A stretch of DNA of 64,000 nt, from assembly GCA_964552045.1 (NCBI GenBank), contig CAZKFF010000003.1, forward strand, positions 11,880-75,879. The letters run 5' to 3'. Shown piece after piece: positions 1,195 to 60,592 of the stretch. The DNA comes from an uncultured Candidatus Saccharibacteria bacterium. Lineage in GTDB: Bacteria > Patescibacteriota > Minisyncoccia > Phycocordibacterales > UBA918. Under the pieces are notes generated by a model. That model was not told the origin of the DNA. It saw only the letters and a list, made by a program, of their open reading frames with translations, and did no database searches. Position 1 is the stretch's first letter. Each line of letters starts with the position of its first letter. Both the position numbers and the translations under genes were made by a program.

Positions 1195-2463
1195 TTGACC
1201 CTCTTTTCCGCTTTAGTATCATTACTCCCATACCGTAGTGGTATCACAAGAGCGTTGACGCTCTTTTTGTTTGGAGCATTACTGTTCACGGAAGCAAAAC
1301 GGCGGCGAGTCCATAACGTCACAATTATTTTAAGCAGTACACCAGATTCTGATTCTTCTAAACGCAGCGTACAAGAACGCAAGGATCAGAAGCCATATTC
1401 AGGAAAGCATCTGCCTCACACGGCAACTTTCTTCCTCTACGAGCTTGTTCCGGCAGCTCTGCTTCTTTTGTTACCGCTTTCGGTGCATGCCGGATTTCTT
1501 TCAAAAATGATGGGTATCTTCTCTGAAGAAGTGGTTGCACAGGTTGCTTCCGAAGAGGTTGACCACTCACCGTCAAACACGCCGCTTTTAAGCGCCACAA
1601 CGAATCCAGATCCACTGCGGGCAGTGGGTGGCGGCGAAGTGTACTATGAGGACGGCGTGCTCATCTCAACGGGGCCGGTCGGAGCTGATGAGCAGGCAGC
1701 GTCATCCAAAAACAAAGGCGAGATCAGTATCTATACAGTAGGAGATGGAGGAGAATCTCTCTCCTACATAGCGCAGATGTACGGGGTGAGCGTGAACACC
1801 ATTGTGTGGGCCAATAATCTTGAAAGCGACACCGATATTCACCCAGGAGATACGCTCGTGATATTGCCTATTGCCGGTGTCCAGCACACAGTTAAAAAAG
1901 GTGAATCATTGGAGTCTATCGTCAAGAAATACAACACCGATCTTGATGAAGAAAAATTCAATGATTACATTAATGAGGTGATTGAGTATAACAATCTTGC
2001 CTCAGCAGACGACATTGTTGAAGGCGATGAATTGATCATTCCAGGTGGAGAACTGCATACTTCTAAAAAAGTGGTTTCAGGAGCAAAACCAACAAAGACC
2101 TCAGGTTCTGTCTCCTCAGGTTCAGGTTTCATACGCCCGGTACCGTCCTATGCACAGAGAACCCAGGGTATCCATGGATATAACGGTGTGGACTTGGCAG
2201 CTGCCATCGGTACCCCGATCTATGCAGCAGCCGGAGGAGAGGTCATCGTTGCGAAAAGTTCGGGCTGGAACGGAGGATATGGTAATTATATTGTCATCAG
2301 ACACAAGAATACGCAGACACTGTACGCTCACCTGAGCAAGTTGTATGTTGGTGTCGGCGACGTGGTTGCTGCCGGCGACAATATCGGCGCGATGGGATCA
2401 ACGGGTAAGTCAACGGGTTCACACTTGCACTTTGAGGTGCGCGGAGGAACCAATCCGTTCTAG
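1195..2463 (+). CDS. Secreted peptidoglycan endopeptidase with two LysM domains and a C-terminal M23 domain; true start uncertain (TTG at 1195, hydrophobic anchor near residues 85-105)
   Basis: LysM-like blocks (ISIYTVGDGGESLSYIAQMYGVSVNTIVWANNL; HTVKKGESLESIVKKYN) and M23 motifs (GIHGYNGVDLAA..., GYGNYIVIRH, GSTGKSTGSHLHFEV). Confidence 0.8.
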   Translation: MTLFSALVSLLPYRSGITRALTLFLFGALLFTEAKRRRVHNVTIILSSTPDSDSSKRSVQERKDQKPYSGKHLPHTATFFLYELVPAALLLLLPLSVHAGFLSKMMGIFSEEVVAQVASEEVDHSPSNTPLLSATTNPDPLRAVGGGEVYYEDGVLISTGPVGADEQAASSKNKGEISIYTVGDGGESLSYIAQMYGVSVNTIVWANNLESDTDIHPGDTLVILPIAGVQHTVKKGESLESIVKKYNTDLDEEKFNDYINEVIEYNNLASADDIVEGDELIIPGGELHTSKKVVSGAKPTKTSGSVSSGSGFIRPVPSYAQRTQGIHGYNGVDLAAAIGTPIYAAAGGEVIVAKSSGWNGGYGNYIVIRHKNTQTLYAHLSKLYVGVGDVVAAGDNIGAMGSTGKSTGSHLHFEVRGGTNPF

Positions 2464-2547
2464 GATTTGTAAAGGTTGGCTAGTATTTTGAGAGCAAAGC
2501 GAAACAAAATACTGACAACCTGTACAGAACGTGTAGGGTTCAAATCC
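2463..2547 (+). ncRNA. Unclassified conserved nested stem-loop element, copy A (3' UTR of the M23 peptidase gene, before its terminator)
   Basis: Outer stem ggatttg/caaatcc, middle stem aggttg/caacct, inner stem agtattttg/caaaatact. The conserved core aaaggttg...gacaacctgtac is shared with the copy at 31517-31602, with compensatory pair changes. Confidence 0.4.
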
Positions 2548-2562
2548 ATTCTAAGAATAAGC

Positions 2563-11243: not shown

Positions 11244-12050
11244 TTAGAAATAACTGCTTGCACGCAGCTGTTCGCGGAGCTTTATGAGCTCAGGATACCC
11301 GTAGAGGAACCGGACCTTGTCAAAGGATACGCCCCGCTGCTCTGGTTTGTCTGCTGTCACAAAGTAGACGAATGATTCAGCCATGTCCTCTGTTGCGTTG
11401 TTGGCAGCATATTGCGTTATAAAGTCGGAACTTCGCTGCGTGCCTGTCCAAAACTCCTGTTTAAAGTCCGTTTCAATGCTCGGATTGCTGAAAAAGAAAA
11501 TATGGCCATATTCATGCAGGAGCAGCTCCACTACCGATTCGTCGTCATAGATCTCCGAGATCTTATTGCCTTCCCTGTTGAATCCCAAGATCCACGTGTG
11601 ATCTGGCTTCTCTTCGACAAAGGCGCTGATCTGGCTTCGGGTATCGCTATAGATGCGGAATTCGCTGATATCGGCTTTCGCAAACGATGCTCCGGCGATG
11701 TCTATAAGTGTATTCCAGAGAAGCTGATCGCCTGCCCGTACGCCTGCATGTGTTGACGGTATGAGCTTCTTGCCATCCACGAGATAGAGAGCTTCGTACG
11801 TGCCCGTATAAAATTTAGTCTTATAAGAAAACTCAGACGCTTTCGCTTTCTGGCCTTTTGCCTCAAGCAATGCCAGTTGCTTCTGCAGCTTTTCGACCTG
11901 TGTAACTAATATTTCAATGCGGTCGCGTATCGCTGCTTTTTGCGAAGCTGTATATGTCTGTGCGTGGGTAAATGGTGCGGCAGTGAACAAACTGATCACT
12001 ACAAAAAATACAATAAATGGTTTCACGGAATCTACTACGTTCATACCCAT
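11244..12050 (-). CDS. Putative secreted HExxH zinc-metallopeptidase-like protein
   Basis: Signal peptide (FIVFFVVISLFTAAPFTHAQ) and LLLHEYGHIFFF (HExxH). Family not identified. Confidence 0.5.
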   Translation of the reverse strand: MGMNVVDSVKPFIVFFVVISLFTAAPFTHAQTYTASQKAAIRDRIEILVTQVEKLQKQLALLEAKGQKAKASEFSYKTKFYTGTYEALYLVDGKKLIPSTHAGVRAGDQLLWNTLIDIAGASFAKADISEFRIYSDTRSQISAFVEEKPDHTWILGFNREGNKISEIYDDESVVELLLHEYGHIFFFSNPSIETDFKQEFWTGTQRSSDFITQYAANNATEDMAESFVYFVTADKPEQRGVSFDKVRFLYGYPELIKLREQLRASSYF

Positions 12051-13162: not shown

Positions 13163-13261
13163 CACACGTCAATGAGCGAAAAAACAATCACACGAAAGTA
13201 GATCATGTCAACTATCAGTGTTGAGCACTCAAAAATATGGCTCTACAGAGCCTCATAAACT

Positions 13262-13305
13262 AACTGCACAACGCGTGTCCTTTATAAAGGACACGCGTTG
13301 TGCAG
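13262..13305. repeat. 44-bp perfect palindrome (actgcacaacgcgtgtcctttat|aaaggacacgcgttgtgcagt) containing the TGTCCTTTATAAAGGACA core
   Basis: Read directly. A second inverted pair atgtccttta/taaaggacat lies at about 13328-13357. Confidence 0.6.
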
Positions 13306-13934
13306 TTATGCACAGTTATACACATGCATGTCCTTTACACATTATTATAAAGGACATAGTATATATGCAGGCCCAGAGAGGGCGAGCAGAGGTATCCCAA
13401 GTTCTCTTCTGAAGTTCACCGCTTCACAAAAGAACTTGGGATATTTCACTCAAAGAGTTCATTCAAAACAAAGCGAAGAGAGTAAGATCTCTTCAAGAGT
13501 TAATACCTCCAACTCTAATAGTTCATAACATCCCACCTTTTAAAGCTCACTGTTGCGATGAGTTGCAATGAGGATAAGAACAACCGTTCGCGTCCTCATA
13601 GCAGCTCATACAACAATATGTGAAAAATCTAAAGTACATAGAGCTTTAAACACAACGAGCCACAAAAGCGGAAATCTCAATAAGGAGATGACCACCTTGA
13701 GACAAAGTCTCACCAATAGGCTCATCAATAAGGCCTAGGGCAGTTGCTAGACGATACGATCGCCTACCAACTACCCTAGGTCTTTTTTTTATTTCCAAAC
13801 TTATTTCTGGAACCGGGTTTTCTGCGCATTAAGAAGACGCTCACAGACGGATGTTTATAGTTATCCCCACAATCCAGCAAAAAAGACGCAAAAACTCATG
13901 TTTTTGCGTCTTTTTGGCGGAGTGTCGGACGTTC

Positions 13935-15472: not shown

Positions 15473-15547
15473 GCACCCGTGGTGAAATGGATATCATTAC
15501 TGACTTCGGATCAGTCGTTGGGGGTTCGAGTCCCTCCGGGTGCACCA
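15473..15547 (+). tRNA. tRNA-Arg (anticodon TCG), CCA encoded
   Basis: Manual cloverleaf: acceptor GCACCCG/CGGGTGC, D-stem GTGA/TCAT, anticodon stem ACTGA/TCAGT, loop CTTCGGA, T-arm GGGGG-TTCGAGT-CCCTC, then ACCA. Confidence 0.85.
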
Positions 15548-15589
15548 GTTTATGCATGGCATGCATACGATCGCTGCCAAAGGACAGCT

Positions 15590-16363
15590 ATGACCGACCA
15601 GGCAAAGACAGTTTTGGAATGGACCTACGATCCGAAAAGCTTCTTTGAAGAGACCGTCTCATTTCCGGTTGAGAACGGCTCTATCACAATTGCAGAGGGC
15701 AAGGTCCGAGGTGAATTTGATGAAGCTTGCTATGATTACGGAAGGCAGTTTCGTGATGAGGTCGATCTGCAGGTCCGTGCGCTATTCATGGCACAGCAGG
15801 TTCAAGTGCATTCGAGCTTCAATCTCTCTGCGGCTTTGATGTCTCGCGAGCACAGTGATGGTCGGCGTGATGTAACGCTGTTTGCAGAGCCGCTCGCGCT
15901 TAAACTCAGCGGCGGTAAGGCCTATTTCGTAATCAAGGATGCCAACGGCAACATTACGCATGACAGCAGGGCGGAAAGGCTCGCTAAGCATCACAGTTTC
16001 CGCGAAGCTGTTGCGACCCTTTTGTCGAGAGACCGCATTCTCAAGCGGCTCCTCCAGAGCTTCCATGCGGCACTTTCGGACGAGGATAATTTGCTCATTC
16101 ATCTCTATGAAGTGCGCGACGCTCTGGTGTCTGAGTTTGGGAGCCATGAGGCTGTGCGAGACGCACTAGGTATTTCGGGGACTAGTTGGAGCAAGTTTGG
16201 GAGGCTTGCAGACAACGAACCTTTCTTGGAAGGAAGGCATCGGGGCCAACACGAGGTCCTGAGGCCAGCGGCAGCCTCTGAAATAGAATGGGTTCTTACT
16301 TTCTCGCAGGGTCTGATTGAAGCTTACGTCCAGTACCGAAATGAGCACCCTTCTGGGAGCTAA
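15590..16363 (+). CDS. Hypothetical protein (258 aa, starting at MTDQAKTVLEWTY downstream of the tRNA)
   Basis: The track ORF 15407-16363 overlaps the tRNA. The internal ATG gives a clean start just after it. No motif recognised. Confidence 0.5.
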   Translation: MTDQAKTVLEWTYDPKSFFEETVSFPVENGSITIAEGKVRGEFDEACYDYGRQFRDEVDLQVRALFMAQQVQVHSSFNLSAALMSREHSDGRRDVTLFAEPLALKLSGGKAYFVIKDANGNITHDSRAERLAKHHSFREAVATLLSRDRILKRLLQSFHAALSDEDNLLIHLYEVRDALVSEFGSHEAVRDALGISGTSWSKFGRLADNEPFLEGRHRGQHEVLRPAAASEIEWVLTFSQGLIEAYVQYRNEHPSGS

Positions 16364-16584
16364 CGTTGAGCCATCGAGCTAACGCTCATCACGCCACAAA
16401 CCTTCCCCGCTCATCCCATTTCAGCGGTCTCTTCGGCTTGTTGTCGTTGCCTGGGATCGGTGGCAAATGCCTGTCGACAACCTTTGCTATTCGCTCCGTC
16501 TCCGGCAACAGTAAGAGCTCGAACAGATCCATAATGACGTTGTCTTTCATAATCTCGCTGGTTCGAGTGGTGTCCTTATCTGGG

Positions 16585-16632
16585 GCACACATGGCCGGCC
16601 GGAAATGCATCTGCATTTCCGGCCGTTGCCAT
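16585..16632. terminator. Very long near-perfect hairpin (catggccggccggaaatgca-tc-tgcatttccggccgttgccatg); a second 10-bp hairpin follows at about 16660-16692
   Basis: Read directly. About 20 bp of pairing with no strong T-run, so it may be a processing or regulatory structure rather than a simple terminator. Confidence 0.5.
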
Positions 16633-16785
16633 GTGTAAGCAAAGCTTTCTTGAACTGCACTCAGAAAACACATGTATGCGGGCATTCATGTGTTTCTTCG
16701 TTTGTTCAGGTAGCACCCGGAGGGACTCGAAATATTACAGAGTGCATCAATTTCTTCCCCATACTCCACTGATACACTAAAATAA

Positions 16786-18806: not shown

Positions 18807-18846
18807 TGCTGGAGAATTGAAAAGGCTTTGCTCTCGGGTATTCTCC

Positions 18847-19275
18847 TCACTTCACCTCGAACAGGAGAACTTTAGGCATTATTCCTGCTGCTCTGCACAC
18901 CATAAGACGCGTATTTCCAGAAACTAAATGGTACCCCTCGGCATGTTTGTATATAATTGGCGCACTGATTGATCTCCCTGCATCAAGATCATCTTTGTAG
19001 CCTCTCCATTCCCGGTCTGCTTGGCGTGATAATGCATCAACCTTATCCCACTGCCCTGCTTCGATATCTTTTGAGTCAGTATTTTCTAGTTGATCCCATA
19101 TCGATGGGTCAAGGAGTACCATAGTGCCGCCTTCTGCTGCAAACAAGAGGTCCAGAGTTGTCATGTTGAACAATGCACCTACGCGTTCAAACTCACCATG
19201 TTCTTTTTCGAGAATTGGGTACTTGAACTGGTTACTTTTTTGTTCAAAGGACTCCATGCGATTATTATAGCTCAT
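18847..19275 (-). CDS. Hypothetical protein (about 142 aa from MSYNNRMESF; RBS ggagagg upstream)
   Basis: ORF with a reasonable RBS. No recognisable domain. Confidence 0.45.
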   Translation of the reverse strand: MSYNNRMESFEQKSNQFKYPILEKEHGEFERVGALFNMTTLDLLFAAEGGTMVLLDPSIWDQLENTDSKDIEAGQWDKVDALSRQADREWRGYKDDLDAGRSISAPIIYKHAEGYHLVSGNTRLMVCRAAGIMPKVLLFEVK

Positions 19276-19316
19276 GCCATAACCTCTCCTCACTTTAATC
19301 TGTTATCATACTCACC

Positions 19317-23888: not shown

Positions 23889-24071
23889 TGAGGAATATGA
23901 AGTATAGCATATTTTGGGGTTTTTGAAGGAGAGGGAGTTTCCTCAACGGGCGGAAAGGCGGGAATCTTTCTCTACGGGAACGGTATAGTCTTCACATCTC
24001 ATTTCCCAGAGGCTCGTTGCGATATGCTCAGGCTCTTCGATTCCCGGACACAAGCAAAGCAGTTTGCTTGT

Positions 24072-24129
24072 GCTCCCCGACAAATAATAAAGGCTCTCTT
24101 TCGAGAGCCTTTATTATTTGTCGGGGAGC
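24072..24129. terminator. 58-bp perfect palindrome (27-bp arms) forming the tRNA-Pro terminator; its arm includes the last 9 nt of the tRNA
   Basis: gctccccgacaaataataaaggctctc-tttc-gagagcctttattatttgtcggggagc. The right arm overlaps the tRNA-Pro 3' acceptor end. Confidence 0.6.
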
Positions 24130-24191
24130 CGGGAATCGAACCCGGACCACACGGTCCCAAACCGCGTACACTACCACTATGCTACACCCCG
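24121..24191 (-). tRNA. tRNA-Pro (anticodon TGG), no encoded CCA
   Basis: Reverse complement folds as CGGGGTG-TA-GCAT-AGTGGTA-GTGT-A-CGCGG-TTTGGGA-CCGTG-TGGT-CCGGG-TTCGATT-CCCGG-CTCCCCG-A, with one acceptor T-T mismatch. Confidence 0.8.
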
Positions 24192-31267: not shown

Positions 31268-31356
31268 GGTTACTGCAGTATAGCAAAATAGCCTAGAAAT
31301 TCAGAAGAATAAGTGCTAGAATGGCGCGCACCAATTGCTGAATTAAGCAATCAACT

Positions 31357-31427
31357 GCGGGTGTGGTTTAGTGGTAAAACGACTGCCTTCCAAGCAGTAG
31401 TCGGGGGTTCGATTCCTCTCACCCGCA
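31357..31427 (+). tRNA. tRNA-Gly (anticodon TCC), no encoded CCA
   Basis: Acceptor GCGGGTG/CACCCGC, D-arm GTTT-AGTGGTA-AAAC, anticodon stem ACTGC/GCAGT with loop CTTCCAA, T-arm GGGGG-TTCGATT-CCTCT. Confidence 0.85.
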
Positions 31428-31490
31428 CACATATGTTCCAGAAAAAAGCCCGTCAAGGGCTTTTTTCTTTGGAACATAGTGTGCGGGTGA
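31419..31490. repeat. Inverted repeat of the tRNA-Gly 3' end (tcacccgcacacatatgttcca / tggaacatagtgtgcgggtga) enclosing a terminator hairpin at 31442-31468
   Basis: Read directly. 21-22-nt arms with one indel. A further 10-bp hairpin gtaacctgct-ggg-agcaggttac follows at 31492-31514. Confidence 0.6.
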
Positions 31491-31516
31491 AGTAACCTGC
31501 TGGGAGCAGGTTACGT

Positions 31517-31602
31517 GAGGAATCGAAAAGGTTGACTGCTATTTTGTGACGGAGGATACAAAATAGCGACAACCTGTACTGATCCTGTAAGGATCGATTC
31601 CT
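31517..31602 (+). ncRNA. Unclassified conserved nested stem-loop element, copy B (between tRNA-Gly(TCC) and the low-GC gene)
   Basis: Outer stem aggaatcga/tcgattcct, middle aggttg/caacct, inner gctattttg/caaaatagc. Same core as copy A (aaaggttg...gacaacctgtac) with compensatory changes in both outer and inner stems. Confidence 0.4.
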
Positions 31603-31621
31603 ATAAAATGAGTGATAAAAT

Positions 31622-32161
31622 GTGCTTATGAACACAGAGCCTAAGAAATATATATTTCATGTAGAGCCTGCAATTGCTGCCATAACACCATACGGGATGG
31701 CCACTATCTCCGAGGACTTATTCAAAATGGCTTCTTATTTTGAAAATGATAACAAAATATCACTTGCACAGTATTATATTTACTGTGCATCTATGGAAAT
31801 CGGATTAAAGGCGGCAATTCTTGCTAGAGATTGCACAAAAGAGAGCAAGGAAACGATTAAAAATTTTGGACACAACTTACATACTGTAAAAAATAAATTT
31901 GAAGATTTGTACGACCCAATTTGGGATAAAGATGATATAAAAGCTATTGAGAAAATTAATCCTTTTTTCAAAGATAAAGATTTAGAATACTTTAAGATTA
32001 ATGTAATGGGTGAAATGTTAAAAGGGTTAAAACAGTTCCCGTCTCTTGACTCGATAGAAAATGCTGCCCGGAAAGTAAATCAGTTTGTGAATCAAGAAAA
32101 ATTCTTTATTAACGCCAAAACGTCTCAAAAACCAGGTAAAGGATTTATAAATTTTGTATAA
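31622..32161 (+). CDS. Hypothetical protein encoded by a markedly low-GC (about 35%) gene; likely horizontally acquired cargo next to the tRNA
   Basis: The composition shift against the ~57% GC background is visible by eye. It lies just downstream of the tRNA and the inverted copy of its 3' end. No domain recognised. Confidence 0.55.
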   Translation: MLMNTEPKKYIFHVEPAIAAITPYGMATISEDLFKMASYFENDNKISLAQYYIYCASMEIGLKAAILARDCTKESKETIKNFGHNLHTVKNKFEDLYDPIWDKDDIKAIEKINPFFKDKDLEYFKINVMGEMLKGLKQFPSLDSIENAARKVNQFVNQEKFFINAKTSQKPGKGFINFV

Positions 32162-32164
32162 AAC

Positions 32165-32557
32165 ATGACCCCTCACATCTCCCTCATCACCCTCGGCGTT
32201 TCCGACCTTCCAAAATCAACCGCCTTCTACAAAGCACTCGGTTTTCCTGCTGAGGGCGACGGGGAAGGGGTGACCTTCTTCAAGCTCCAGGGCACCTGGC
32301 TCTCGCTCTTCCCAAAAGAGGAACTCTCCAAAGACGCACAGACACCAATGGGTACAATTGCGCCCACATTTTCACTTGCACATAATGTCGCAAGCAAAGA
32401 AGCGGTACACGAAGTCATTGAGCTTGCTCGGAGTATCGGAGCTGTAATCATAAAGGAACCGCAGGATACCTTCTGGGGAGGATACGCCGGGTATTTCAAA
32501 GATCCCGACGGGTATCTGTGGGAAGTTGCCTGGAATCCGTTTATGGATCTCACCTAA
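32165..32557 (+). CDS. VOC/glyoxalase-bleomycin-resistance-family protein
   Basis: Two beta-alpha-beta-beta-beta modules (ISLITLGVSDLPKSTAFYKALGF ... FKDPDGYLWEVAWNP). A terminator follows at about 32560-32590. Confidence 0.75.
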   Translation: MTPHISLITLGVSDLPKSTAFYKALGFPAEGDGEGVTFFKLQGTWLSLFPKEELSKDAQTPMGTIAPTFSLAHNVASKEAVHEVIELARSIGAVIIKEPQDTFWGGYAGYFKDPDGYLWEVAWNPFMDLT

Positions 32558-37593: not shown

Positions 37594-38775
<1,182 letters not shown>

Positions 38776-39784: not shown

Positions 39785-39881
39785 ATTTTTTAAACCGGTT
39801 AAGTGCTCCGTAAAATGTACCTATAGTATAGCCCCGTAACACGTACGTGTTACGGGGCTATACACAGTATGCATGGGCGGT

Positions 39882-60229: not shown

Positions 60230-60592
60230 AGACTAAATGTCTCTACGCAAGACCTTGCCTGATATTTTCTGAGCGAGCGAAAGAAAATATCGACGAGGTG
60301 TACAGCTTCTGTAAGAAGAATAATTTCTTCATCGTACAGAACCGGCACATTACTAATAAATAGTCTATATTCGCTACAGATAACGGATGAGGTTCAAGCC
60401 AGAAATGGCTTCGGAACCGCACTATGCGAAGAATGAAATGTGGCATTGTCATATTCTCATTTGTTTGCATGTAAGTTACTCATGCGGGTTGGGGCATATT
60501 GTGGGAGTGCGTGATCTGAAAATGCATTAGGAATAGCATTTTGAGATTTACAAGTTTTCTACAATTCGCTCCGCTCATTAAGAAAACTAATA

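Follow-up and report, generated by a model that had tools for sequence, protein, structure and literature searches.

The RtT element, described in the late 1970s, lies behind tRNA-Tyr in enterobacteria, and to our knowledge it has no relatives outside these bacteria. Direct attL/attR repeats bound tRNA-integrated islands, tyrosine-integrase elements that use tRNA and tmRNA genes as integration sites, and the recombinases that target tRNA genes usually cross over at the boundary between the T-stem and the acceptor stem. Repetitive extragenic palindromes and bacterial interspersed mosaic elements (REP/BIME), together with Correia-type miniature inverted-repeat transposable elements (MITEs), are interspersed structured repeats. 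Here we describe a locus that recalls all of these systems. It lies in a 64,000-nt stretch of DNA (the window) from an uncultured Candidatus Saccharibacteria bacterium (GenBank assembly GCA_964552045.1, contig CAZKFF010000003.1, forward-strand positions 11,880 to 75,879), in which the tRNA-Gly(TCC) gene is followed by a structured noncoding unit, whose core we call element B, and by a low-GC gene for a 177-aa orphan protein. Two unrelated layers are probably superimposed here: a resident, RtT-like trailer element and a horizontally acquired gene lying in this element's copy of the tRNA end.

RtT RNA reportedly results from processing of the tyrT transcript, and its function is described as still unclear (bioRxiv 10.1101/2024.07.17.603846; PMC3318445, citing Bosl and Kersten 1991). 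According to the 2024 preprint, its mode of action is unknown (bioRxiv 10.1101/2024.07.17.603846). We examined this reference on E. coli NC_000913, where the units of the tyrT-tyrV operon score 133-137 bits with Rfam model RF00391. Each unit is 178 nt long and ends with a 19-nt copy of the tRNA-Tyr end, while a 10-nt complement, GGGGAAGGAT, stands 100 nt upstream. In the Rfam consensus structure, the helix formed by copy and complement closes the unit.

A noncoding unit built on the end of tRNA-Gly(TCC)

Downstream of tRNA-Gly(TCC), the 3' portion of the tRNA is found in three copies, two inverted and one direct (Table 1). The inverted copying of tRNA and trailer covers 23 nt in total, in two perfect blocks: one of 12 nt (31419-31430 against 31479-31490, 12/12), and a second of 11 nt made of T-loop and T-stem (31408-31418 against 31517-31527). 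The blocks are contiguous in the tRNA itself; in the copy they are split at the acceptor/T-stem junction by a 26-nt insert containing hairpin H. Exact 11- and 12-mers less than about 100 nt from their partner are far above chance, which we estimate ourselves at about 1e-5 per 12-mer. Between the two arms of the outer block, 31432-31447 and 31463-31478 are inverted matches at 88%, and the centre is taken by a terminator-like hairpin that a consensus scan missed because its T-run is inside the stem. All of the features listed by an earlier description (the sequence-only reading) are present, and several of its details need correction. The inverted copy that it assigned to the last ~21 nt of the tRNA is real, but only about 10 nt of the 22-mer it quoted belong to the tRNA, the rest being trailer, and there is one indel. 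It rightly saw the two copies flanking the terminator, as the hairpin is central in the palindrome 31419-31490, and its perfect 10-bp hairpin is hairpin H. The second inverted block and the direct T-arm copy had escaped it.

Table 1. Features of the tRNA-Gly(TCC) locus and the other element B copies, in window positions
Feature	Position	Strand	Basis or remark
Promoter-like site of the tRNA gene, TAGAAA-17 nt-TAGAAT with TG	31294..31322	+	Consensus match only; block kept in relative L001
tRNA-Gly(TCC)	31357..31428	+	ARAGORN; Rfam tRNA 73 bits; no CCA encoded
X, tRNA 3' segment copied downstream	31408..31430	+	T-loop, T-stem 3' strand, acceptor 3' strand, discriminator, 3 nt of trailer
Terminator-like hairpin, AGAAAAAAGCCC / GGGCTTTTTTCT	31440..31468	+	Centre of long palindrome 31419-31490; read from sequence
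X'a, perfect inverted copy of acceptor 3' strand, discriminator and trailer, GTGTGCGGGTGA	31479..31490	+	
Hairpin H, GGG triloop (C-UGGGA-G)	31492..31514	+	10-bp stem 31492-31501 / 31505-31514
X'b, perfect inverted copy of T-loop and T-stem 3' strand, GAGGAATCGAA	31517..31527	+	5' strand of closing helix P1
Element B core, three-way junction	31516..31606	+	Covariance model (CM) R1 91.5 bits, E 1.6e-23
X'', direct T-arm copy, GGATCGATTCCT	31591..31602	+	11/12 bases; shortened here by insertion
Inserted low-GC segment	31603..32164	+	31.9% GC; comparison with relatives L008 and L001; GC
177-aa orphan gene	31628..32161	+	Family with sub-threshold HEPN similarity
Resident glyoxalase/VOC gene, conserved right flank	32165..32557	+	Pfam PF00903, 7e-18; syntenic in L001 and L008
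Element B, second copy	2460..2552	+	Between M23 peptidase gene and terminator 2554-2604; CM 70.1 bits; away from tRNA genes
Element B, third, diverged copy	60239..60330	+	Right after rpsL; CM 38.7 bits, E 1.4e-8; away from tRNA genes

The region 31476-31606 folds into a hairpin and a three-way junction (-50.1 kcal/mol, z -5.8). The core begins 88 nt past tRNA-Gly(TCC), on the same + strand. It comprises helix P1 (31518-31524 / 31596-31602), helix P2 (31529-31534 / 31570-31575 plus 31537-31548 / 31557-31568), followed by a GUAC linker, and helix P3 (31581-31586 / 31590-31595).

The segment 31479-31602 is one resident structured element belonging to a large family without an Rfam entry: a search of Rfam 15 at the gathering threshold and at E<=10 gave no family for 31479-31606, matches to miRNA and Thr-leader models being only long-hairpin or terminator look-alikes. 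No description of the element was found in literature searches. Several other identities were rejected. The complement follows the genomic trailer rather than a CCA end, contrary to a retrovirus-like primer-binding site; no T-stem partner exists for a further tRNA or for an antisense tRNA-like gene, and the G-U bias favours the sense strand; the GAAA and CUGA-like motifs are in the wrong order for a hammerhead-type ribozyme; the arms match the adjacent tRNA and differ between loci, unlike those of a fixed-end MITE with constant terminal inverted repeats; and guides of the TIGR or bridge-RNA type are contradicted by the unit size and by the lack of a partner gene.

A large family linked to tRNA genes

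The family was sampled with an 18-base degenerate pattern taken from the core common to two window copies, which gave 134 matches in at least 120 metagenome stretches (loci from these stretches and from relatives carry L numbers below). The matches listed have the complete architecture of 31479-31602, with the exception of L014 (a simple repeat) and a few chance hits. For 75 of the 134 matches listed, a tRNA or tmRNA gene on the same strand ends less than 400 nt upstream, with more than 20 anticodon types represented, and a few further listed matches have a tRNA just downstream. The arms of the units follow the neighbouring tRNA. A block equivalent to X'a occurs at 65 tRNA-linked loci, where the longest exact direct copy of the locus's own tRNA end measures 10 nt in the median (24 nt at most) and the longest exact complement 11 nt, compared with 5 nt for both when tRNAs are mismatched to loci. 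The direct repeat continues beyond the tRNA end, into trailer and terminator, by 10 nt or more in 28 of 61 loci and by 25 nt or more in 19 of them. Only one unit is present in the window. Elsewhere units often stand in tandem, and arrays with periods of 134-185 nt occur in L084, L038, L072, L064, L026 and L034, and L084 has three identical units at a 152-nt period. Hairpins of the H type occupy the same place in many metagenome units.

In an alignment of 76 units, the proposed helices are paired at 91.4%, against 80.5% in shuffles, and the covariation score is 0.321 against 0.124, a value reached by none of 500 shuffles; sliding the partner by 1-3 columns brings it down to 0.08-0.11. The P3 pair 74-84 is UA in 50 units, AU in 16 and CG in 10, with no mismatch. 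Since there are 92 G-U pairs against only 17 A-C pairs, the fold is read on the tRNA-sense strand. CM R1 gives 143 hits across 549 kb of these loci, in both orientations and often with more than one hit to a contig, and about a quarter of the element copies do not adjoin a tRNA. The core is absent from 2.9 million viral contigs, and the family is apparently one of Patescibacteria-type genomes.

Two further observations concern the arrangement of copies. Convergent arrays, with 4-6 element copies within about 2 kb and on both strands, are seen at L064 5804-7734, L106 605-1956 and L047 99-672. At L028 1338-1911 a unit comes after a tmRNA gene, with a complement of the tmRNA T-arm (GCGAGAATCGAA) and a copy of its end (ATCTCCAC).

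Other tRNA genes and element copies in the window

All four tRNA genes of the window are associated with an inverted copy of their own 3' end, and the repeat is therefore not an integration scar of the gene inserted behind tRNA-Gly(TCC). At tRNA-Pro(TGG) (- strand, 24036-24191), a perfect 27-bp hairpin (24072-24129) that includes the last 9 nt of the tRNA is followed by a 22-nt hairpin, ACAAGCAAACTGCTTTGCTTGT (24071-24050), and then by CCGGGAATCGAA, the complement of the T-loop and T-stem (24047-24036). Like its counterpart at tRNA-Gly, the 22-nt hairpin occupies the acceptor/T-stem junction, and the core downstream of these trailer hairpins differs from element B. A copy of the tRNA 5' strand was considered and rejected: the 5' strand reads CGGGGTG, whereas the copy, CGGGGAG, complements the 3' strand. 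The GCAAACUGCUUUGC hairpin of tRNA-Pro also recurs at the equivalent position in metagenome units L084, L128, L072 and L094.

At the tRNA-Arg(TCG) locus (15473-16731), where the tRNA gene has an encoded CCA, the perfect 19-nt inverted copy of the 3' end is at 16713-16731, 1,166 nt downstream. An orphan 257-aa open reading frame (ORF; 15590-16363, 52.6% GC, no Pfam family) lies in between, directly behind the tRNA, and the locus looks like one in which a gene was inserted between the tRNA and its trailer element. A long palindrome (~16584-16637) stands between this ORF and the 19-nt copy. A 9-nt direct match, GGTTCGAGT, behind the same tRNA was judged compatible with chance. Behind tRNA-Gly(GCC), the terminator is followed by a degenerate, internally shortened unit, GGAGAATTGAA-AAGG...ATTCTCC (18811-18846). 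The next gene after that unit (18847-19293, - strand) encodes 148 aa, with 44.7% GC and no Pfam family.

The two element B copies away from tRNA genes keep the fold through compensatory changes. At 2460-2552, which has a T-arm-like end (GGGTTCAAATCC), the closing helix is GGATTTG / CAAATCC where the tRNA-Gly copy has GGAATCG / CGATTCC. At 60239-60330 there are compensatory changes in P2a (ACCUU/GAGGU) and P3 (CUUC/GAAG).

Empty sites and the inserted gene

Relatives of the locus were found in several ways. A protein-seeded scan of species-representative genomes gave L001, from the metagenome-assembled genome (MAG) of an uncultured bacterium, with 75-83% nucleotide identity to the window, and L002, a Ca. 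Nomurabacteria MAG whose protease is 50% identical. Identity of the HU protein led to L008 (79-88%) and L007 (~71-75%). L006 and L009-L010, from the same HU look-up, and L011, from a glyoxalase look-up, are 100% identical to the window; L006 and L009-L010 are therefore the same organism in other samples.

L001 and L008 are without the 177-aa gene, and their tRNA-Gly or its trailer element is joined straight to the glyoxalase gene. In L001, tRNA-Gly leads into a long hairpin and a 19-nt inverted copy that nothing interrupts; two hairpins come next, and the direct copy CGATTCCTCTCA then precedes glyoxalase. Hairpin H is not there, and tRNA and glyoxalase are 234 nt apart, compared with 736 nt in the window. 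The end of the L008 unit reads ...CGACAACCTGTACTGATCCTGTAA-GGTTCGATTCCTCTCACC-tttgctatactttccct-ATGACCCCTCAC, that is, element B, an intact 18-nt tRNA-end copy (GGTTCGATTCCTCTCACC) and the glyoxalase start codon. In the window, the corresponding sequence is ...CTGTAA-GGATCGATTCCT / ATAAAATGAG...(gene)...TAAAAC / ATGACCCCTCAC, where the slashes mark the junctions: 562 nt (31603-32164) stand in place of the ~23 nt of the L008 empty site. The left junction is inside the tRNA-end copy, at the T-stem/acceptor boundary. L008 keeps this copy whole and L001 most of it, but in the window it is cut precisely at the gene border. L007 is arranged otherwise (898-1376, - strand). There, parts of the tRNA-Gly 3' end recur twice in series behind the gene as direct copies, CGATTCTCCCATCCCG and AATTCTCCCATCCGCA, with noncoding hairpin modules between them, and neither the glyoxalase gene nor the 119-aa gene is present. 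This locus is a rearrangement hot spot.

The composition follows the same borders. The 177-aa gene has 32.2% GC and 30% GC at third codon positions (GC3), and it is the lowest-GC 534-nt stretch of the window; the window mean is 52.1%, the flanking genes have 51-57% GC and 56-67% GC3, and the drop is confined to 31603-32164. The sequence-only reading was right that the gene lies far below the background, with values that shift from 35% to 32.2% for the gene and from 57% to 52.1% for the window. The 179 aa that it gave for the protein correspond to a GTG start at 31622, but the database copy and the homologues favour the ATG at 31628 and 177 aa.

The segment resembles a tRNA-integrated islet in its absence at the site in relatives and in its deviant GC (32% against 52%). 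Two-sided direct repeats and an integrase were not found at this site: the tRNA-end copy is at the left border only, no further one of at least 9 nt was found within 3 kb downstream of the inserted gene, and no integrase or recombinase gene lies in or near the insert, which holds one ORF without a Pfam family and has genes for a protease, the glyoxalase and HU as neighbours. The glyoxalase gene begins 3 nt past the stop codon of the inserted gene, in the same orientation. An integron cassette was rejected on gene spacing: the stop codon is 3 nt from the next ATG, and no attC site follows the gene.

A HEPN-like orphan family

A word-indexed search gave only three homologues of the 177-aa protein, with 44-50% identity, while an exhaustive search gave 177 cluster representatives at E<=1e-3. 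A profile search added 162 proteins, none with a Pfam domain, one of which is named "HEPN domain-containing" by JGI. Residues Y49, E57, K61, L65, H82, K117, E120 and Y121 are invariant in the family. Weak, co-linear matches to Pfam HEPN (E<=0.05) are found in 50 of 118 members, with scores of 15-18.5 bits that stay under the cut-off of 22. The window protein has no Pfam HEPN hit. Its lack of a recognisable domain, noted previously, therefore holds at curated Pfam thresholds, and the HEPN part of the HEPN/Abi-like fold suggested then is retained only below threshold, by way of the relatives. Although H82 is invariant, no conserved arginine precedes it as the Rx4-6H motif demands. The AlphaFold2 model is all-helical (pLDDT 86.8, pTM 0.81), and a Foldseek search returned no significant match, with several HEPN structures among the top hits. 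Hits in Pfam, PADLOC and PHROGs are at noise level (PDC-M12B E 0.002, phrog 0.39) and were set aside. The family was not found in viral contigs.

The close homologues have unrelated contexts. One is 1.2 kb downstream of tRNA-Leu and one next to a GIY-YIG gene. In L005 (2910-4562), the homologue lies 0.9 kb downstream of tRNA-Met, within a 1.55-kb islet that also has a YopX gene; a 24-nt direct repeat of the tRNA-Met end is found 1,553 nt downstream, and GC steps from 68% to 48%. L005 is a miniature tRNA islet of the classical type. The more remote members of the family stand alone, in places that vary, and one of them is beside integrase fragments. We read this as a real, mobile, HEPN-like orphan family, whose predicted activity would be that of an RNA-directed enzyme.

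Comparison with known systems

The unit behind tRNA-Gly(TCC) and its relatives are closest in design to RtT. In both, the unit lies directly behind the tRNA on the same strand and has a similar length (178 nt in E. coli, 134-185 nt here). Both end with a direct copy of the tRNA 3' end, which pairs with an upstream complement to close a helix, and in both the tRNA trailer is duplicated. The E. coli units stand in tandem, as units of this family do in the metagenome arrays but not in the window. The core, in contrast, is unrelated in sequence and in fold: RF00391 has no match at E<=10 in 31300-31700, and none at the gathering threshold in the whole window. This element is therefore an analogue of RtT and not a member of its family. 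Moreover, RtT copies the encoded CCA, whereas the tRNA genes here are mostly without CCA; RtT is known behind tRNA-Tyr in enterobacteria, whereas this family is found behind more than 20 tRNA types and a tmRNA; and it has an extra conserved hairpin at the acceptor/T-stem junction, as well as copies away from tRNAs. No tpr-like small ORF was seen.

With the att repeats of tRNA islands, the family shares a copy of the tRNA 3' end that runs from the T-loop through the gene end, and the use of tmRNA genes. Serial partial copies (L007), a HEPN-like insertion that begins inside such a copy, and a homologue in a true islet (L005) are further resemblances. However, the segment between the family repeats is only ~110-160 nt long, noncoding and conserved as a fold; an inverted copy is part of the unit, although integration yields none of that kind; an integrase is absent; and a repeat borders the inserted gene on a single side. 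Like REP/BIME sequences and MITEs, the family is multi-copy, intergenic and hairpin-rich, often just after genes, in arrays and in both orientations. It differs in that its closing arms are not constant but match the adjoining tRNA, and in that its core is a three-way junction with conserved unpaired nucleotides rather than a simple palindrome. No RAYT or transposase partner of the element was identified.

The protein is comparable to HEPN proteins (PF05168; HepT-type toxins, Csm6): it is small and all-alpha, the motifs E-x3-K-A...L and G-H-x-L are co-linear with PF05168 in many members of its family, and the genomic contexts of this family are mobile or variable. Unlike the HEPN toxins, its gene has no MNT or antitoxin partner, and any nuclease activity of the protein is putative.

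A two-layer model and its alternatives

The anatomy of the locus, the family with its covariation and strand, the empty sites and the composition are direct results; transcription and processing of the unit, how and in which direction the insertion arose, and the activity of the protein are inferences. A unit consists, in order, of the complement of the acceptor 3' strand, the conserved hairpin, the complement of T-stem and T-loop, the three-way-junction core and the direct tRNA-end copy. This last part often carries the trailer and terminator as well, and complement and copy close the unit as one long helix, the architecture of RtT. In the proposed model, the unit would be made as RNA in the orientation of the tRNA, transcribed with it or after it. 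The enzymes that process tRNA ends would probably excise it, acting on its tRNA-like closing helix and trailer, in the way reported for rtT. Duplication of the tRNA 3' end and trailer would account for the direct copy; it explains neither the complement nor the conserved hairpin at the acceptor/T-stem junction. The repeated tRNA end may make the locus prone to recombination. The tRNA-end copy would then have served as a target, and the 0.56-kb segment with its single HEPN-like orphan gene would have been acquired horizontally at the T-stem/acceptor boundary of this copy.

Several points weigh against this model. The element is called an RNA on the basis of covariation and of the G-U/A-C bias, a signal that folded single-stranded DNA gives as well. 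As about a quarter of the copies are away from tRNAs, a tRNA-specific role cannot cover them all; the tRNA-linkage statistics come from loci selected by pattern, and some core columns are invariant by construction because an exact 18-base pattern was used for sampling. In the window itself, the tRNA-end copy is truncated, hence the outer acceptor-like helix cannot form there. The Patescibacteria label of the family rests on one named relative with 50% protein identity. No recombinase, second repeat or target duplication was found at the insertion, and gain in this lineage was favoured over loss in two relatives on the grounds of composition and the truncated repeat rather than of a rooted tree. 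The HEPN assignment is below the Pfam cut-off, the canonical Rx4-6H motif is missing, and no Foldseek match is significant.

The two-layer model can be extended further, and only tentatively, to a general class of trailer RNAs personalised to their tRNAs. E. coli RtT would be the sole described example, and in genomes of the Patescibacteria type the class would have spread to most tRNA species and to tmRNA. Each unit would mimic the top half of a tRNA. Its closing helix would resemble an acceptor/T-stem with the exact 3' strand of the neighbour, and the GGG hairpin, at the place of the D-arm, may dock on the UGUAA loop. Such a mimic would be cut by RNase P and RNase Z, and possibly CCA-tailed. 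If this is true, the RNA could serve tRNA 3'-end metabolism; alternatively, it could be a decoy or guide for whatever recognises tRNA ends, toxins or tRNA-targeting integrases for example.

It is unlikely, but deserves attention, that the noncoding unit is instead selfish DNA, a miniature integrative or REP/MITE-like element multiplying at tRNA 3' ends. Recombination at the T-loop or unequal crossing-over could be the means, and a recombinase or transposase supplied in trans would then recognise the hairpins as single-stranded DNA. The multiple copies per genome, on both strands, with identical tandem units and some copies away from tRNAs, would fit this well, as would the trailer and terminator included in the repeat at about half of the loci, the att-like start of the tRNA-end copy at the T-loop, the serial partial copies of L007, and the G-T wobble that folded single-stranded DNA tolerates. 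However, the "terminal repeats" differ with each tRNA, which is beyond a fixed-end transposon, and no recombinase is linked to the element. A length of 135-185 bp is very small for a double-stranded circle, viral contigs lack the core, and the strongly conserved nucleotides of junction and loops resemble an RNA tertiary core.

As for the gene layer of the model, the 177-aa gene could be ancestral at this site and deleted, once or independently, in L001 and L008, its low GC reflecting its own constraints. Only two empty sites, which may branch in any order relative to the window, are available, and the gene abuts glyoxalase like an operon partner. We nevertheless find this improbable given the GC3 of the gene beside that of its neighbours and the tRNA-end copy cut exactly at its border, while its only three close homologues among 5.8 billion clusters are all in unrelated contexts and L007 is arranged in yet another way.

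The sequence-only reading had taken the whole of 31430-32165 as a single integrated or remnant mobile islet, with the inverted repeat as the mark of integration and with element B and the hairpins as islet DNA. A tRNA-adjacent segment with a composition break and a tRNA-end repeat does suggest an islet, and members of the protein family travel in tRNA islets (L005). Comparison with relatives divides this segment in two: 31603-32164 is absent from L001 and L008, and the inverted copy, hairpins, element B and direct copy remain at these empty sites. The low-GC gene can thus be kept as a lineage-specific insertion by the tRNA. The inverted repeat, in contrast, fails as a mark or trace of integration: the other window tRNAs carry one too, making it common to the tRNA genes of this genome, a case that the sequence-only reading had itself named as refuting, and the noncoding unit stands behind dozens of other tRNAs. 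In addition, the GC drop excludes the noncoding unit, and integration yields direct, not inverted, repeats. As an account of the whole segment, a single islet is very improbable; the islet reading holds for the gene only.

Finally, the inverted copy might be an over-extended terminator palindrome produced by neutral template switching at the hairpin and unlinked to element B, and the palindrome does run continuously from terminator loop to acceptor strand at the window tRNA-Gly and tRNA-Pro and in L001; this deserves hardly any credence, as the complement goes on into T-stem and T-loop past a conserved hairpin placed at the same junction in tRNA-Gly and tRNA-Pro, many loci combine a complement with a non-palindromic trailer (e.g. 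L056), the tRNA-Arg complement is 1.17 kb away, and E. coli RtT has its complement without any palindrome.

Additional observations

CM R1 finds a second element copy in L008. Elsewhere in the window, a tandem hexanucleotide (TCGTGG)n of ~70 nt at 38120-38220 is probably a coding repeat, and there are two spacerless perfect palindromes, at 13261-13308 (24+24 nt) and 39826-39863 (19+19 nt).

Conclusions

The noncoding element at tRNA-Gly(TCC) is a widespread, Rfam-less variant of a rare and poorly understood kind of element, and the HEPN-like gene is an ordinary small acquisition. This gene shows that the element's tRNA-end copy can be an insertion point that spares the tRNA gene. In genome scans, a tRNA-end repeat alone is no evidence of an integrated island in these genomes. 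The RtT-like design now extends, around an unrelated core, to many uncultivated bacteria, where it follows a tmRNA gene and tRNA genes of more than 20 kinds. With more than 100 naturally varied units, the function of trailer repeats and their personalisation to each tRNA become testable by comparative and biochemical means.

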